IMG/VR virus record: IMGVR_UViG_3300028376_000003
Span: 64,001-128,000 of that record
Source: a virus
Length of the DNA stretch: 64,000 nucleotides
Reading direction: 5' to 3' (one strand)
The position numbers were made by a program, and so were the translations under genes. The notes beneath the pieces were generated by a model. It searched no databases. It saw only the letters and a list, made by a program, of their open reading frames with translations, and had not been told where the DNA came from. Shown piece by piece: positions 25,572 through 43,302 of the stretch; the stretch's first letter is position 1, and each line of letters opens with the position of its first letter.

Positions 25572-25655
25572 ATGAATACTTTTACTAACATAGAATATTA
25601 TTATGAAGAATCTGAACGAAAACGCTCGGCTAGTCTTTTGATGTCTATAATGTAA
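25572..25655 (+). CDS. Attenuator leader peptide 1 (MNTFTNIEYYYEESERKRSASLLMSIM)
   Basis: 27-codon ORF with GAA TAT TAT TAT GAA GAA TCT GAA, directly before a terminator and tRNA-Tyr/tRNA-Glu. Confidence 0.8.
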   Translation: MNTFTNIEYYYEESERKRSASLLMSIM

Positions 25656-26406: not shown

Positions 26407-26481
26407 ATGAGAACAATTAATAACATAGCAATAATAGCGATAGGCAAAGGGAAAACTCATTGGCTGGGAATTGTTATGTAA
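26407..26481 (+). CDS. Attenuator leader peptide 2 (MRTINNIAIIAIGKGKTHWLGIVM)
   Basis: 24 codons with ATA GCA ATA ATA GCG ATA GGC AAA GGG, before a terminator and tRNA-Ile(UAU)/Gly/Gly/Ala. Confidence 0.82.
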   Translation: MRTINNIAIIAIGKGKTHWLGIVM

Positions 26482-34842: not shown

Positions 34843-35283
34843 ATGGGAGAAAAAATCACAAAAGGAGATTTATTTTTATTTACATCACATTATGATAATG
34901 GTCGTTCAGTCCATTACTATGGTTCACTTGTAGAAATAATTGGTATTGCAAGTAATAGCATAATGATGGTAACTGGTGAAGGAGATTTAAACACTAAAGA
35001 GAAATTGCTTATAAGAATAATAAAGGATAGTAACTTTAAAGACATTGATTCTAGTAAATTTTCTAAAACGCTTGTAAAAGATTTAAAAATTAAATTTAAA
35101 TTTAATCTAGAAAATGATACCATTGAAGCAGATTCACATGATGTGCACAAGATAAATATAGACTATGGATTAGTTGAAATTGATAAAAAAATAGATAGGC
35201 TTTTAAAAGAGAAAACTCTTTACAATGACTTTCATATCAGGACAAGAAAGCTAAGGAAATTATTAGATGATTCTAATGACTAG
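34843..35283 (+). CDS. Hypothetical protein
   Basis: 146 aa; ends IRTRKLRKLLDD. Confidence 0.65.
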   Translation: MGEKITKGDLFLFTSHYDNGRSVHYYGSLVEIIGIASNSIMMVTGEGDLNTKEKLLIRIIKDSNFKDIDSSKFSKTLVKDLKIKFKFNLENDTIEADSHDVHKINIDYGLVEIDKKIDRLLKEKTLYNDFHIRTRKLRKLLDDSND

Positions 35284-35822
35284 TTATTCTCAAATGGACT
35301 TATCTTAGAATCTATCAAAGACATCAATTCATTGTGTGTTTGTGATAGATTCCTTGATACTAAACCATCTAAAATAAATCTAGTTTCTGTCACATACTTG
35401 CTGACAAATTTATCACTACCTTGTTCTAAATCTGAGCAATTGTGTAATCTATCAGCTAACTTTATAACAAGAGCATAACTAGTCATATTTAGCATTTTAT
35501 CTAATAAATACTCTGATTTACCTACCTTCTCTATTTTGTTATTATCAGATGTAAGTTCTTCTACTATACTACTGACCATTTTTCCAAACTCTTCTTCTAT
35601 ATTACTAATAGTAACATCACAATCTTCAACAGTGTCGTGAAGTAATGCCGCAATACAAATTAGCTCCTTATTTTTACTCACCTTGACCTCCCTAACTATT
35701 TTGCTTACTGCAATTGGGTGCCATGCATATTCTTTGCCAGAAAATTTTCTAAACTGTCCATCGTGTGCCTCTATCATAAATAATAGAGCCTTTCTTAGCT
35801 TTGTTTCTTTTTTAGTTTTCAT
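35280..35822 (-). CDS. Stand-alone RelA/SpoT-type HD hydrolase (small alarmone hydrolase/Mesh1-like)
   Basis: AHDGQFRK.SG.EY..HP, AALLHDTVED, FG..V..IVEELT, IKLADRLHN. Confidence 0.88.
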   Translation of the reverse strand: MKTKKETKLRKALLFMIEAHDGQFRKFSGKEYAWHPIAVSKIVREVKVSKNKELICIAALLHDTVEDCDVTISNIEEEFGKMVSSIVEELTSDNNKIEKVGKSEYLLDKMLNMTSYALVIKLADRLHNCSDLEQGSDKFVSKYVTETRFILDGLVSRNLSQTHNELMSLIDSKISPFENN

Positions 35823-35918
35823 AGTTGTCATATATATTAAACAAATATAACCTTTTTATTTGATATATACAACAGGGGAGATATATACTTTTATATATAT
35901 AATAAAATATAAAAAATC

Positions 35919-36443: not shown

Positions 36444-36653
36444 ATGGAATCTAATAAAAAAGAAACTAATGGGATATTGTCAGTAGTTCTAAATGTTTTC
36501 CTAGTAGCTACAGAAAATAGGCTAATAAGCTTCGCTATCAAAAATAAAGAATTAAGCCCTGAGCAGACTAGTTATATAGAGTCTGAATACGGCAAAATAG
36601 AATCTATCGAAGATGGTAGTAGTGGGTTCACTAAAACTGTTATATACATTTAA
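36444..36653 (+). CDS. Hypothetical protein
   Basis: ORF 36387..36653; probable ATG start at MESNKK. Confidence 0.5.
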   Translation: MESNKKETNGILSVVLNVFLVATENRLISFAIKNKELSPEQTSYIESEYGKIESIEDGSSGFTKTVIYI

Positions 36654-36664
36654 TAAAATGAACT

Positions 36665-36859
36665 ATGTTAATTAGAAAAATGTATACCTTGTACATAAAT
36701 ACAACACTTAGAACTGCATACTTTGGTAATCTAAAGTTTGGATGTAGAATAGGTGGTGCAAAGTTTGGTAAAGTAATTGATTGTAATTTATCTGATTTGA
36801 AACACAACCTAAGAATACTAGCAGAAGAAAATTATTTAATTAATAAACGCACGTATTAA
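36665..36859 (+). CDS. Hypothetical protein
   Basis: 64 aa ORF in a tandem run. Confidence 0.5.
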   Translation: MLIRKMYTLYINTTLRTAYFGNLKFGCRIGGAKFGKVIDCNLSDLKHNLRILAEENYLINKRTY

Positions 36860-36860
36860 A

Positions 36861-37208
36861 ATGAAAATAACAAAAGGAACATTCAAATATACTGGTATTA
36901 ACGATATAGATATTGACTTAGTCACAGACAAGTGGAATCATTTATGGATGCTTGCTGAGTGGAAAGTAGACAATTCTTGGAAAATAGTCAAATATATTAG
37001 AAAAGACTCTCAAAATACCGAGATAAAGCTAACGATATCATGTGAACAAGCAACTGAACTTATTAAAAACCTTGGCTTAATTAATATTAATACTGGGTTT
37101 CAAAGTGGTTACTCTTGGAGGACTAAAAAGGATATGGTGTATTTAGAGAACTGGAGATTGGCAAGACATAAGAAATTACAGACCAAATTAATAACAAACA
37201 ACTTTTAA
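36861..37208 (+). CDS. Hypothetical protein
   Basis: 115 aa ORF. Confidence 0.6.
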   Translation: MKITKGTFKYTGINDIDIDLVTDKWNHLWMLAEWKVDNSWKIVKYIRKDSQNTEIKLTISCEQATELIKNLGLININTGFQSGYSWRTKKDMVYLENWRLARHKKLQTKLITNNF

Positions 37209-37211
37209 ATT

Positions 37212-37478
37212 ATGAAAGATACATTTAGATACTTCATCAGAAAGAACTTCTCTGAGATTGGCGAAATAAGCAATGAGGATATTGATGAAATCGGAATTGA
37301 ATTTCACAAGTACTTGGATAGCAAATTAAATGATGACCAAAAGGCTAAAATACTACCAAAAAGTGCGATTGATGTAATAATGAATAGCGACCACCCACTT
37401 AAAACAAACGGATTTGAGCCAGCATATATGCTACATTTTACACAATGGACAAAGGAACAAAGTGAATCGCAAGACTAG
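37212..37478 (+). CDS. Hypothetical protein
   Basis: 88 aa ORF. Confidence 0.6.
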   Translation: MKDTFRYFIRKNFSEIGEISNEDIDEIGIEFHKYLDSKLNDDQKAKILPKSAIDVIMNSDHPLKTNGFEPAYMLHFTQWTKEQSESQD

Positions 37479-37543
37479 TTAAATGTTTTTATAAATTTTT
37501 TGGCTATTAGCTTCTATATTTACACAATAATAATAATAAAACA

Positions 37544-37765
37544 ATGAATAAAGACAATAATTCTATTATAGATACTAATGTACCTCTTTTTAAGTATATC
37601 GAGATTAAGGATTATGACAATGATAGTGTTGTTAAGCGACTAGATGTAAGCGATAAATCCGATAGGCGTATAGATACTATCGAAAGTGGGATTGATATAA
37701 ACTTAAACCATGACCAATACTATACGTTTAGTCATGATAGTGAAGTTGAATTAGAACTCATATGA
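37544..37765 (+). CDS. Hypothetical protein
   Basis: 73 aa ORF. Confidence 0.6.
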   Translation: MNKDNNSIIDTNVPLFKYIEIKDYDNDSVVKRLDVSDKSDRRIDTIESGIDINLNHDQYYTFSHDSEVELELI

Positions 37766-37794
37766 AAATAAATTTAAATCTTTTTAAAAAACAC

Positions 37795-37905
37795 TTGTGA
37801 GAAACAAATATTAGTTATATATTTGCACAGAACCTAAAATAATTTAAACTTTTAGTAAAAAAAAGAATATAAATAACCAAAGGAAGAAATAAAATTTAAT
37901 ATATA
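37795..37905 (+). promoter_or_regulatory. Stacked promoter cassette (TTG-N20-TATATTTG; AAACTTTT-N14-TATAAA; TTAATATATA)
   Basis: Motifs at 37795-37825, 37846-37873, 37896-37905; near-duplicate at 42504-42613. Confidence 0.65.
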
Positions 37906-37911
37906 ATAGTG

Positions 37912-38031
37912 ATGAAAAATTTAAACCTAAATACAAATAGAAACTTAACGCTCAATGTGGTGAATATTATGTTATGTAATAGACCATCTAGGGGTTCTAG
38001 TGTATTTAATAAATTTCATCTTATGACATAG
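37912..38031 (+). CDS. Attenuator leader peptide 3 (MKNLNLNTNRNLTLNVVNIMLCNRPSRGSSVFNKFHLMT)
   Basis: Codons 3-24 encode only N/L/T/R/V/I/M/C, the amino acids of the 11 downstream tRNAs. Confidence 0.82.
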   Translation: MKNLNLNTNRNLTLNVVNIMLCNRPSRGSSVFNKFHLMT

Positions 38032-38054
38032 TGAAATAAAAAATACAAATAACT

Positions 38055-38090
38055 AAAACCCCTAGAAATGAAAATTCTAGGGGTTTTTTT
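38055..38090 (+). terminator. Attenuator terminator 3
   Basis: aaaacccctagaa-atgaaaa-ttctaggggttttttt; 5' arm also pairs perfectly with tctaggggtt (37987-37996). Confidence 0.9.
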
Positions 38091-38097
38091 GTTTTAT

Positions 38098-38182
38098 GCT
38101 AGTGTGGTGGAATGGTAGACACGAGGGATTCAAAATCCTTTAATCAGAAATGATTATATGAGTTCAAATCTCATCATTAGTA
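38098..38182 (+). tRNA. tRNA-Leu (CAA)
   Basis: aggga-TTCAAAA-tcctt, long variable arm. Confidence 0.88.
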
Positions 38183-38194
38183 CATATATTACAA

Positions 38195-38268
38195 TCCTCG
38201 TTAGCTCAGTGGTCAGAAGCTCTCGTCTGTTAAACGAAAGGTCGGTGGTTCGAATCCACCACGAGGAG
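38195..38268 (+). tRNA. tRNA-Asn (GTT)
   Basis: ctcgt-CTGTTAA-acgaa; G73. Confidence 0.9.
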
Positions 38269-38276
38269 CAAATAAT

Positions 38277-38358
38277 CGGCATATACCAGCCCAAGCTGAT
38301 ACCTTGGAGAACTGTAGTTGGTAAGTTGAAAACGTAGGTTCGAGTCCTACTGTGCCGA
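38277..38358 (+). tRNA. Atypical tRNA-Ile (GAT): no D-arm, 26-nt variable region
   Basis: cggcata/tgtgccg acceptor, 7-nt linker, ccaag-CTGATAC-cttgg, gtagg-TTCGAGT-cctac. Confidence 0.7.
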
Positions 38359-38372
38359 CTTTTATGACACTT

Positions 38373-38457
38373 GTCGGAGTGGTGGAATGGCAGACACGCT
38401 GGGTTTAAGCTCCAGTGGGCAGTGATGTCCGTGAGGGTTCGAGTCCCTTCTCCGATA
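38373..38457 (+). tRNA. tRNA-Leu (TAA)
   Basis: ctggg-TTTAAGC-tccag, long variable arm. Confidence 0.88.
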
Positions 38458-38466
38458 CGAATAAAT

Positions 38467-38556
38467 GCCAGTGTGGTGAAATTGGATGAAACACGCTAGT
38501 CTTAGGAACTAGTACCCAAGAGGTAAACATTGTCGGTTCGAGTCCGACCACTGGTA
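38467..38556 (+). tRNA. tRNA-Leu (TAG)
   Basis: ctagt-CTTAGGA-actag. Confidence 0.88.
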
Positions 38557-38566
38557 CAAAATAAAT

Positions 38567-38647
38567 GCCTTAGTAGTCCCGATTGTCTTCTAAACAATTA
38601 AGGGTAATTGGAAGCTGAAAATATAGGTTCGAGTCCTATCTAGGGTA
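38567..38647 (+). tRNA. Atypical tRNA-Arg (TCT): no D-arm, 24-nt variable region
   Basis: gccttag/ctagggt acceptor, 8-nt linker, attgt-CTTCTAA-acaat, atagg-TTCGAGT-cctat. Confidence 0.7.
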
Positions 38648-38656
38648 CAAATAAAA

Positions 38657-38730
38657 AGTTCTGTAATTCAGGGGTTCAGAATGCTTCCCTTACAAGGAAG
38701 AAGTCGTTGGTTCGAATCCAACCAGAACTA
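38657..38730 (+). tRNA. tRNA-Val (TAC)
   Basis: cttcc-CTTACAA-ggaag. Confidence 0.9.
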
Positions 38731-38736
38731 CAAAAT

Positions 38737-38808
38737 GTACCTATGACCGAGTGATTTAGGTAGGTGGCTGCAACCCATCGTACGGGGGTTTGAATCCCTC
38801 TAGGTACT
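38737..38808 (+). tRNA. tRNA-Cys (GCA)
   Basis: ggtgg-CTGCAAC-ccatc; U73. Confidence 0.88.
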
Positions 38809-38815
38809 CTAATAT

Positions 38816-38888
38816 GCTGACATAGCTCAATTGGTAGAGCATTTGATTTGTAATCAAAAGGTTGTGGGTTCGAAGCCCTCTGTCAGCT
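38816..38888 (+). tRNA. tRNA-Thr (TGT)
   Basis: tttga-TTTGTAA-tcaaa. Confidence 0.9.
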
Positions 38889-38898
38889 CTGAAAAAAT

Positions 38899-38988
38899 GC
38901 ACTAGTGGCGAAGTGGATGAAACGCATCAGACTTAAAATCTGATACCCTTTGAGGTGAACAACGTGGGTTCAAATCCCACCTGGTGTA
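38899..38988 (+). tRNA. tRNA-Leu (TAA), second copy
   Basis: tcaga-CTTAAAA-tctga, long variable arm. Confidence 0.88.
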
Positions 38989-38992
38989 CTAA

Positions 38993-39078
38993 ATCGCTAT
39001 GAACAGATGTGGTAATTGTGCTTGGCTCATATCCAAGTTAGAGAAATCTTATTGTTGGTTCAAGTCCAACTAGCGGTA
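38993..39078 (+). tRNA. tRNA-Met (CAT), elongator or Ile2, with long variable arm
   Basis: cttgg-CTCATAT-ccaag; acceptor atcgcta/tagcggt. Confidence 0.75.
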
Positions 39079-39080
39079 CA

Positions 39081-39120
39081 AAAAAAGAGGGGATATAATT
39101 AATTATATCCCCTCTTTTTT
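39081..39120. terminator. Bidirectional terminator
   Basis: aaaaaagaggggatataattaattatatcccctctttttt, a perfect palindrome. Confidence 0.88.
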
Positions 39121-39132
39121 ATATTATTTGTT

Positions 39133-39564
39133 TTATTTATTTTTAAGACTTTCTATATCATCCCTTATCTCATCTATATCATCTAAAGATATATCATCCA
39201 AATCTTTACCAGCATCACCAGTATTATCTGTTACTACAGGAATAACATCTTCTATCCCTTTATCTATTTCCTTAGCAATGTAATCATCCCCTGCAATACT
39301 CTCTCTTTCTATTTGTAAACAGAACTGTGCTAATACTGCTAAATCATCATTTTTCTGTGCTAAATCGAATACTTTGCTATTAAGTTCATATTTTGACATA
39401 CCTCTAAATTTCTTTCTAGTATAGTAGTCATAGAAATCTTGCTCTTCTCTAGACATAACATTAGATGGTTTTCTATCAATACCAAATATCTCTGTCTTTT
39501 TAGCTTTTGCAGTTACTGCTTCGCTCACTTTTTTATTGTTAAAGTCTTTATATTTTTTTATCAT
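39133..39564 (-). CDS. Probable capsid-internal protein
   Basis: MIKKYKDFNNKKVSE N-terminus; TTAATATATA upstream. Confidence 0.6.
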   Translation of the reverse strand: MIKKYKDFNNKKVSEAVTAKAKKTEIFGIDRKPSNVMSREEQDFYDYYTRKKFRGMSKYELNSKVFDLAQKNDDLAVLAQFCLQIERESIAGDDYIAKEIDKGIEDVIPVVTDNTGDAGKDLDDISLDDIDEIRDDIESLKNK

Positions 39565-39582
39565 ACTCTTATATATTAATTT

Positions 39583-40218
39583 TTATTTACCATTTATTTC
39601 TTCAAACTCTTTTTCTAAATAAAGATAAATGTATTTTTTATACCTTTTCTTAATATCATCACTCACCGCCCTTGATATTCCCATCCATAGACCAATACTT
39701 TTTAATTTAGAAAATGCATCTTTTATATCATTTGGATTTCTTTCCATTATTAGGTCTGTTATAGATTGTGAAAAAGCCATTACCTCATCTTTATTCGAAA
39801 AATAAGCCTTTTGATCTGAAATGTTTCCTAAAAATTCAAAATTTAAATCAGCTGGTCGTCTCAAACCTTGTTTTAAATGTATATTTTCATGCTTTAATAC
39901 GTGGATAGCAAAACTGATATCATTACTCTCAAGATATCTTACATTATTAGCAAGAACCAATCTAGGCTTTTTAGTAACTGGGTTTAATAAACCAAATACT
40001 TTCATACCATTTGGTGGTGCATCTTCCCTCATTTTATCAGTTGGTAATTCATCATAGAATGTTCTGTAATAAACAACCTCTATATCATTTTTTGCACCAA
40101 TTCTTTGTAATTCATCAACACTAATACTCCACTCAGCCTCGACCTCTTTTATAAACTTTTCTAAATTATCAGACTTCCAATCTATTATTGCCTCATTAAA
40201 CTTTTTTAAATGTTTCAT
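39583..40218 (-). CDS. Probable capsid-internal zincin-motif (HExxH) protein
   Basis: MKHLKKFNE N-terminus; HENIHLKQ...YFSNKDEVMAF. Confidence 0.65.
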   Translation of the reverse strand: MKHLKKFNEAIIDWKSDNLEKFIKEVEAEWSISVDELQRIGAKNDIEVVYYRTFYDELPTDKMREDAPPNGMKVFGLLNPVTKKPRLVLANNVRYLESNDISFAIHVLKHENIHLKQGLRRPADLNFEFLGNISDQKAYFSNKDEVMAFSQSITDLIMERNPNDIKDAFSKLKSIGLWMGISRAVSDDIKKRYKKYIYLYLEKEFEEINGK

Positions 40219-42620: not shown

Positions 42621-42725
42621 ATGAAAAATTTAAACTTAAACATAGTAGTTAACCCTCAACCCCAAGTTGATATCGATCAGGATTCTGATACGAAAGGTGC
42701 TAACTATGTTTTAAATTTAAGTTGA
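42621..42725 (+). CDS. Attenuator leader peptide 4 (MKNLNLNIVVNPQPQVDIDQDSDTKGANYVLNLS)
   Basis: PQPQVDIDQDSD block before a terminator and (Asp-Gln-Pro)x2 tRNAs. Confidence 0.82.
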   Translation: MKNLNLNIVVNPQPQVDIDQDSDTKGANYVLNLS

Positions 42726-42791: not shown

Positions 42792-42864
42792 AGCTCTGAG
42801 GTCAAATGGTTAAGATGTACGTCTGTCTCACGTAACGGAGTGGGTTCGATTCCCATCAGAGCTG
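42792..42864 (+). tRNA. tRNA-Asp (GTC)
   Basis: tacgt-CTGTCTC-acgta; G73. Confidence 0.85.
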
Positions 42865-42876
42865 CTAATATTAAAT

Positions 42877-42950
42877 TGCCCCATAGTGTAATTGGCTAAC
42901 ACATCTGGTTTTGGTCCAGAAGATTGCAGGTTCGAACCCTGCTGGGGTAA
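42877..42950 (+). tRNA. tRNA-Gln (TTG)
   Basis: tctgg-TTTTGGT-ccaga. Confidence 0.9.
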
Positions 42951-42959
42951 CAAGTTAAT

Positions 42960-43033
42960 CGAGAAGTGACTAAGGTTATAAGCACGGGTGCATTGGAGGC
43001 ATCAGTTAGCAGGTTCGATTCCTGTCTTCTCGA
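42960..43033 (+). tRNA. tRNA-Pro (TGG)
   Basis: ggtgc-ATTGGAG-gcatc; C1:G72, A73; weak D-arm. Confidence 0.78.
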
Positions 43034-43045
43034 CAAATTTTTAAT

Positions 43046-43117
43046 AGTCCATTAGTGTAAAGGTTATCATTTCCGACTGTCTCTCGGAAGATAGGGGTTC
43101 GAATCCCCTATGGACTG
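43046..43117 (+). tRNA. tRNA-Asp (GTC), second copy
   Basis: tccga-CTGTCTC-tcgga; G73. Confidence 0.85.
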
Positions 43118-43123
43118 CAAAAA

Positions 43124-43197
43124 TGCTCTATAGTGTAATTGGTTAACACGTCTGGCTTTGGTCCAGGAGATTGTAGGTTCGAACCCTACTGGGGCAA
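43124..43197 (+). tRNA. tRNA-Gln (TTG), second copy
   Basis: tctgg-CTTTGGT-ccagg. Confidence 0.9.
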
Positions 43198-43206
43198 CAA
43201 GTATAG

Positions 43207-43279
43207 CGAGGGTGTAGTGTAATCTGGTAACACACGATGTTTGGGACATCGAATTGCTGTTCGAATCGGACATCTTCGA
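43207..43279 (+). tRNA. tRNA-Pro (TGG), second copy; 8-bp acceptor and short T-stem
   Basis: cgatg-TTTGGGA-catcg; cgagggtg/catcttcg. Confidence 0.72.
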
Positions 43280-43302
43280 CAAAAATTATAGTTAAAACTA
43301 AA

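Follow-up and report, generated by a model that had tools for sequence, protein, structure and literature searches.

A tRNA operon and its leader open reading frame

The window analyzed here is a 64,000-nucleotide stretch of DNA from a giant uncultured phage (bases 64001-128000 of a 141,527-base IMG/VR virus record; G+C 28.7%), and the element under study is a short leader open reading frame (ORF), followed by an intrinsic terminator, that lies ahead of a block of tRNA genes at 38098-39079. ARAGORN detected 20 tRNA genes in the record, all within the window and arranged in four groups, and Rfam added more. Behind the leader, 11 tRNA or tRNA-like genes were found on the plus strand, nine of which were reported by both ARAGORN and Rfam: tRNA-Leu (CAA) at 38098-38183, tRNA-Asn (GTT) at 38195-38269, tRNA-Leu (TAA) at 38373-38458, tRNA-Leu (TAG) at 38467-38557, tRNA-Val (TAC) at 38657-38731, tRNA-Cys (GCA) at 38737-38809, tRNA-Thr (TGT) at 38816-38889, a second copy of tRNA-Leu (TAA) at 38899-38989, and a tRNA of 87 nt with anticodon CAT (Met, or Ile if modified) and a long extra arm at 38993-39079. 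The remaining two genes were added by Rfam. One has anticodon GAU (Ile; 38277-38358) and scored 27.3 bits, just below the 29-bit cut-off, and was also found by ARAGORN at relaxed settings; the other has anticodon UCU (Arg AGA/AGG; 38567-38647) and scored 39.1 bits. The amino acids served by this block are exactly Asn, Leu, Thr, Arg, Val, Ile, Met and Cys. The operon and a convergent gene (39133-39564) are closed by a two-way terminator at 39081-39120.

The two tRNA-like genes are of unusual shape. The D arm is replaced by 3-4 nt and the extra region spans 22-23 nt: the GAU gene lacks a D arm and has a 23-nt extra region, and in the UCU gene the D arm is cut to 3 nt and the extra region is 22 nt. 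The extra region of the GAU gene contains the D-loop-like AGTTGGTA, as if the D arm had been relocated, and the UCU gene has a homologue in the huge-phage genome LR745206.1 described below (locus L009, 6389-6478). Long extra arms (84-90 nt genes) were reported by ARAGORN for the Met tRNA at 38993-39079 and for Asn, Lys and Ile tRNAs in the related loci L009, L010, L020 and L021. In bacterial tRNAs a long extra arm is normally confined to Leu, Ser and Tyr.

The leader ORF (37912-38031, plus strand) comprises 39 codons and a TAG stop (ATG at 37912, TAG at 38029-38031), and homologues were found in 27 loci, the window included. The initial annotation had proposed that codons 3-24 (37918-37983), 22 in a row, are limited to Asn, Leu, Thr, Arg (AGA), Val, Ile (ATT), Met and Cys, each used at least once, and that this set is the same as that of the downstream cluster. 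Translation of the ORF bore out the first point, and the amino-acid set of the nine ARAGORN genes plus the two Rfam tRNA-like genes proved identical to that of the leader. By strict wobble rules, 21 of the 22 codons are readable by anticodons of the cluster; the remaining codon, CTC, needs a U34 that reads the whole four-codon box.

The composition test against genomic codon usage that had been suggested with this annotation was carried out. Across 88 long ORFs of the record, the eight amino acids account for 42.9% of codons. For a run of at least 22 within 38 codons, the probability was 8e-8 when computed on amino acids and 3e-9 when computed on codons. No other run of this kind in the six frames of the record (283,054 codon positions) is as long as the 22-codon one; the runner-up spans 17. 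One caveat on the codon match is that the first seven leader codons are common to a sister unit in the window (unit D, see below), the tRNAs of which are specific for Asp, Gln and Pro; since unit D shares them, these seven codons are part of a common 5' module. Codons 8-24 taken alone have a chance of 0.429^17, or about 6e-7. The run contains only one codon each for Ile, Met and Cys, so the leader would probably have low sensitivity to these three amino acids.

Two types of promoter-like sequence were found upstream of the leader ORF on the plus strand, and their motifs (TAnnTTTG and TTAATATATA) mark gene starts in the record. A host-type site at 37795-37825 consists of TTGTGA, a 17-nt spacer and TATATT, is kept in sister unit D, and overlaps a TAnnTTTG sequence at 37818-37825, which we take to be the Bacteroidota -7 promoter element. 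The second, TTAATATATA at 37896-37905, is a promoter-like motif of phage gene starts and lies 6 nt ahead of the leader ATG. This motif occurs 33 times in the record compared to about 9 copies expected; 21 of the 33 precede the ATG of an ORF of at least 60 residues, mostly by 4-6 or 18-22 nt with few outliers, and copies are present ahead of all four leader units of the window or their tRNA-Met. The 6-nt spacing at the leader is the same as that at real genes such as the 741-residue ORF. Example sites are window positions 37896, 42604, 26381 and 25453, together with 42475 and 39579 on the minus strand. The distribution suggests that TTAATATATA is probably a phage-specific promoter that would give very short or no 5' untranslated regions. 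Within 37700-39130, both motifs were found solely upstream of the leader ORF, and a scan of 38032-39130 for the two motifs detected no copy. Because the promoter motifs occur only there, the tRNA genes appear reachable only by read-through of the terminator.

Predicted mutually exclusive structures in the leader RNA

The strong terminator (38055-38094, plus strand) has a 13-bp stem (38055-67/38075-87), a 7-nt loop and a U tract, with a predicted energy of -17.4 kcal/mol, and its U tract ends 3 nt ahead of the first tRNA gene. A perfect 10-bp antiterminator had been noted from the sequence, and the analysis reproduced it: the 10-mer TCTAGGGGTT (arm 2, codons 26-28 of the leader) lies at 37987-37996, its complement (arm 3) at 38057-38066 in the 5' arm of the terminator, and a second copy of TCTAGGGGTT at 38076-38085 in the terminator 3' arm (arm 4). 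Because the 10-mer at 37987-96 is repeated at 38076-85, arm 2 can take the place of arm 4 on arm 3. The antiterminator and the terminator are mutually exclusive, as they share arm 3. The predicted energy of the antiterminator is -12.2 kcal/mol for its core and -24.4 kcal/mol with three further helices. When scored as a duplex, arms 2 and 3 gave -15.8 kcal/mol (z = -5.6), a value equaled by 0 of 300 shuffled leaders.

A pair that would compete with the antiterminator (37928-35 with 38001-08) had likewise been pointed out, and it was recovered as part of the minimum-energy fold, where it forms the outer helix of a larger hairpin 1:2 (37928-38008, plus strand; -16.2 kcal/mol). In this predicted anti-antiterminator, the regulatory codons form the 5' strand and arm 2 lies within the 3' strand. 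For the full leader RNA, the form with hairpin 1:2 and the terminator (3:4) is preferred at -40.8 kcal/mol over the antiterminated form at -34.6 kcal/mol.

The effect of a stalled ribosome was examined by use of a footprint model in which the ribosome blocks -15 to +12 nt around its A site. Before arm 3 exists, the modeled free fraction of arm 2 rose from 0.36 to 0.57-0.62 when the A site was placed at codons 13-17, and it stayed above the baseline for stalls at codons ~9-21. By contrast, ribosomes stalled at codons 24-32 covered arm 2 itself. For the leader of LR745206.1 the free fraction rose from 0.10 to ~0.6 on stalling, and the overall rise was 1.7- to 6-fold. The model suggests that only codons ~9-22 can free the antiterminator and that codons 3-8 probably do little. 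The proposal of a sensor with eight inputs survives this restriction, since all eight amino acids occur within codons 9-22.

Homologous and sister units

Relatives of the unit were found by back-translating the conserved core of the leader into a degenerate pattern, which retrieved four IMG/VR and 21 metagenome loci. With LR745206.1 and the window, the comparison set came to 27 loci, which carry 21 distinct leader ORFs. Among named genomes, the closest relative is LR745206.1, a 634,780-bp uncultured huge phage in which the homologous unit (L009, 6034-6213) heads a block of 19 tRNAs. This genome belongs to the set described in PMC7162821, where genomes above 634 kb are predicted to infect Bacteroidetes and where terminators and attenuation are not mentioned. 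Other routes to relatives were less productive: a megablast query with 36500-39600 had no match among GenBank phages, IMG/VR had no hit to an exact pattern that combined the promoter motif with the opening codons of the ORF, and the relatives reached through the neighboring 741-residue protein (L004-L006, 54% identity) had one tRNA only and no leader.

The units of LR745206.1, IMG/VR and the lake metagenomes agree with the window unit in leader family, in arms and terminator, and in the content of the tRNA block. The window unit differs from these relatives by a swapped core of the terminator and antiterminator, by an N-terminal part that is rich in Leu and Asn (shared with unit D) instead of Met and Thr, and by one Ile codon fewer. 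Arm 2 reads TCTAGGGGTT in the window and CTGAGGGTT in every relative; the terminator arms read AACCCCTAGA ... TCTAGGGGTT in the window and AACCCTCAGA ... TCTGAGGGTT in every relative. A swap of the same two neighboring positions is seen in each of arms 2, 3 and 4. In a six-sequence alignment (A3), 96.7% of the antiterminator was paired with two compensated pairs and 97.4% of the terminator was paired with three, and shifting the partner by one column lowered pairing to ~55-63%. The pairs of hairpin 1:2 are also conserved in the relatives (96.6% of cells), and of the two Leu codons of the core, the one that is paired to the G run in arm 2 is CTC in 21 of 21 leaders, whereas four synonymous codons are found at the other.

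The coding side of the leader was compared in the same set. The search pattern fixed a 13-codon core, such that conservation of the core is by construction, and left the N-terminal codons unconstrained. The eight or nine codons ahead of the core differ in order and number among lineages; over the 21 sequences, these 172 residues use only Asn, Thr, Met, Leu, Arg and Ile, plus Lys at codon 2 or 3. Met or Thr occupies the free codon within the core, and Ile and Arg the two codons that follow. An open frame with start and stop was retained in 21 of 21 distinct leaders, and indels were of 3 nt inside the ORF and of 1, 2, 4, 5 and 8 nt behind the stop. Block content was judged wherever a locus extended far enough downstream and its detected tRNAs formed an unbroken run, with the limitation that ARAGORN misses atypical genes. 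By this approach, the tRNA blocks of the relatives were found to have 8-19 genes, none of which was for an amino acid outside the eight.

The window carries three sister units, each composed of an ORF, a terminator and tRNAs, and the unit described above is termed C. Unit A (leader 25572-25655) has a Tyr/Glu-rich center and lies ahead of tRNA-Tyr and tRNA-Glu; unit B (leader 26407-26481) has ATA, GCN and GGN codons ahead of Ile (TAT), two Gly (TCC) and Ala (TGC) tRNAs; and unit D (leader 42621-42725) has Pro, Gln and Asp codons ahead of Asp, Gln and Pro tRNAs. LR745206.1 has at least eight codon-matched units. Among them, a leader of 16 codons with seven Gln precedes three tRNA-Gln genes, a leader of nine codons with four Lys precedes four tRNA-Lys genes, and a Ser/Arg-rich leader precedes Arg (ACG) and Ser (TGA). 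When leaders were scored against blocks, no other permutation did as well as the true assignment, either among the 24 in the window or among the 40,320 in LR745206.1. Over the promoter region and first seven codons, units C and D are 81% identical, with divergence starting exactly at the matched codons, and units A and B likewise share their terminator and 5' end. By a shuffle duplex test, an upstream partner for arm 3 was significant in units B, C, r1 and r6 and weaker in r3, r4 and r7.

Several further observations were made at these loci. Unit A sits behind a tRNA-Met that lies outside the attenuator. Behind the unit D leader, the Asp-Gln-Pro tRNA triplet is tandemly duplicated (42792-43280), and the third member of the first copy (42960-43033) scored only 30.4 bits and has an ambiguous anticodon. 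In LR745206.1, the nine-codon Lys-rich leader (L010, 1637-1710) is followed by a hairpin with no clear U tract before the four tRNA-Lys genes, and this unit may work without an intrinsic terminator. A 145-residue Cys-rich HNH-like ORF (L011, 2836-3273) lies inside a tRNA block of the same genome and is followed by further tRNA-like sequence. Upstream of the window operon, at a distance of 2 kb, the minus strand encodes a 183-residue protein (35280-35831) with a SpoT/RelA-type HD_4 domain (E 1.7e-16), a candidate (p)ppGpp hydrolase.

Attenuation model, alternative explanations and significance

Taken together, these results indicate that the unit is most probably a ribosome-mediated (leader-peptide) transcription attenuator ahead of an 11-gene phage tRNA operon. 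The attenuator reading, put forward in the initial annotation, was strengthened by the arms that changed together, the codon set held in 21 leaders, the in-frame indels and the matching of sister units to their blocks. Transcription from the promoter-like sites at 37795-37905 would have to pass the terminator at 38055-94 to reach the tRNA genes, and the leader ORF would be translated during its own transcription. A ribosome that moves fast through codons 3-24 would let hairpin 1:2 fold behind it and lock arm 2, such that 3:4 would form and the transcript would end at the U tract. By contrast, a ribosome slowed on an Asn, Leu, Thr, Arg, Val, Ile, Met or Cys codon (best at ~9-22) would sit on strand 1 and leave arm 2 free; arm 2 (37987-96) would then pair with arm 3 (38057-66) upon its emergence, the terminator would not form and the tRNA genes would be transcribed. 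Because the products are tRNAs that read those same codons, the circuit would act as a negative feedback loop on decoding capacity in which any one of the eight amino acids could serve as input (OR logic). Sequence and comparison directly give the ORF and its codon set, the terminator and the alternative pairings, the joint evolution of these pairings, and the lack of a promoter motif behind the terminator. From these features we infer that the leader is translated, that stalling would lead to read-through, that polymerase would obey the terminator, and that the signal would be the amount or the charging of tRNA.

Several findings weigh against this model. The compensatory change in the arms is a single lineage event, though at exactly the positions the model requires. 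No compensatory change was detected in hairpin 1:2 among the relatives; because this helix is invariant, covariation neither supports nor contradicts it. The invariant core codons also form RNA helices, so that codon identity is doubly constrained. In some relatives tRNA-Cys or tRNA-Met was not detected in the block, though the leader keeps the corresponding codons. In the footprint model, the antiterminator forms at equilibrium with a probability of ~0.96 before arm 4 exists, even with no ribosome present; since 2:3 beats 1:2 at equilibrium once arm 3 exists, the decision of the switch would have to be kinetic, as in trpL. Unlike trpL, the stop codon lies 33 nt beyond arm 2, and a terminating ribosome would leave arm 2 uncovered. 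Finally, no significant partner for arm 3 was detected in units A, D, r2, r5 and r8 by the shuffle duplex test. As results for this partner vary among units, unit C has the clearest switch and some sister units may work otherwise.

The same anatomy could respond to amino-acid starvation through uncharged tRNA, with tRNA output as part of a host starvation or stringent response. A stalled ribosome cannot distinguish a missing from an uncharged tRNA, as established for trpL and hisL, and the SpoT-type HD_4 hydrolase gene lies close by. We consider this version unlikely, as extra tRNA cannot relieve an amino-acid shortage, such that the output would not answer the signal, and the strict match of each leader to its own block fits product feedback better. 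A different kind of sensor, in which codons of the leader RNA pair with tRNA anticodons as in T-box riboswitches and the ORF is incidental, would also account for the codon-tRNA match and for the terminator/antiterminator pair. T-box leaders resemble the window unit in reading tRNA status by codon-anticodon logic through such a switch. They differ in that they are untranslated, have one specifier codon and a conserved T-box sequence, and control synthetase or amino-acid genes, whereas the window leader holds a conserved ORF. Neither T-box nor any other Rfam family was detected at threshold on 37700-38110, and T-box gave no match in the leader even at E up to 10; sub-threshold matches at that setting, to His_leader (26.4 bits, cut-off 49) and Phe_leader (19.1 bits, cut-off 55), covered the terminator hairpin only. 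With the frame, start and stop kept in 21 variants, the indels in frame, and no structural precedent for 22 specifier-like codons serving eight tRNAs, direct sensing of tRNA by the leader RNA appears very unlikely.

Two further explanations would deny the ORF its regulatory role. The terminator might simply end an upstream transcript, with the ORF meaningless and its match to the block a product of AT-rich composition and common descent. Asn, Leu and Ile are indeed common in a 29% G+C genome, the first seven codons are shared with unit D, and the relatives are homologous, so their agreement is not independent. We nevertheless regard coincidence as extremely improbable, given the longest run in 283,054 codon positions (P ~1e-7, and ~6e-7 for codons 8-24 alone), an arm 2 that follows the 2-nt swap of the terminator, variable N-terminal residues that stay within the set, and twelve units that match their own blocks; moreover, the tRNAs would not be expressed under this reading, as the terminator is followed by no promoter motif. 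The ORF could instead encode a functional micro-protein, with the RNA pairings secondary, as the 13-residue core and the following R-P-S/T-E-G-S stretch are conserved. However, the search pattern itself imposed the core, the conserved stretches fall on strand 1 and arm 2, and the peptide is free to vary at either end in sequence, length and stop position, which leaves a micro-protein scarcely credible.

The favored reading, leader-peptide attenuation, places the unit beside well-studied systems. The enterobacterial attenuators (ilvGMEDA for Leu/Val/Ile, thr for Thr/Ile, and trpL, hisL, leuL and pheL), for which the general scheme is given in PMC1183508, similarly have a short ORF rich in regulatory codons, an intrinsic terminator and an antiterminator that shares the terminator 5' arm. 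In them, an upstream strand in the codon run sequesters the antiterminator, a role that in the window unit is predicted for hairpin 1:2. They regulate biosynthetic enzymes and sense two or three amino acids, whereas the output of the window unit is tRNAs, its loop would act on decoding capacity, and it covers eight amino acids. Further differences of the window unit are a stop well beyond arm 2 and a phage carrier whose host is probably a member of the Bacteroidota. In leader control of the pheST/thrS type, a component of translation is likewise placed under a leader of cognate codons, yet one synthetase and one amino acid are involved, compared to the tRNAs themselves, in blocks, here. Full-text literature searches found no description of attenuation of tRNA genes. 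The tRNA-gene output and the breadth of eight amino acids differ from all cases known or found in the literature.

On a wider scale, the unit could be one channel of a phage-borne monitor of the tRNA pool, in which each block is turned on only when its codons are read slowly, although we hold this idea tentatively and find it on balance doubtful. Slow reading may in that case arise from a host pool unfit for the AT-rich codon usage of the phage or from host tRNAs destroyed or shut off as a defense. With eight amino acids joined by OR logic to one 11-gene operon, the leader would then be the broadest leader-peptide sensor known and the first with tRNA genes as its regulated output. Phage tRNA genes are usually regarded as constitutively expressed add-ons. 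With a codon-matched attenuator ahead of every block, the phage would instead gauge decoding speed and top up only those tRNAs in short supply. Leader-peptide attenuation would thereby be extended to tRNA targets, to phages and to probable Bacteroidota hosts. The model would also offer a reason for the sorting of huge-phage tRNA genes into amino-acid blocks and would provide a natural eight-input OR-gate sensor of translation.

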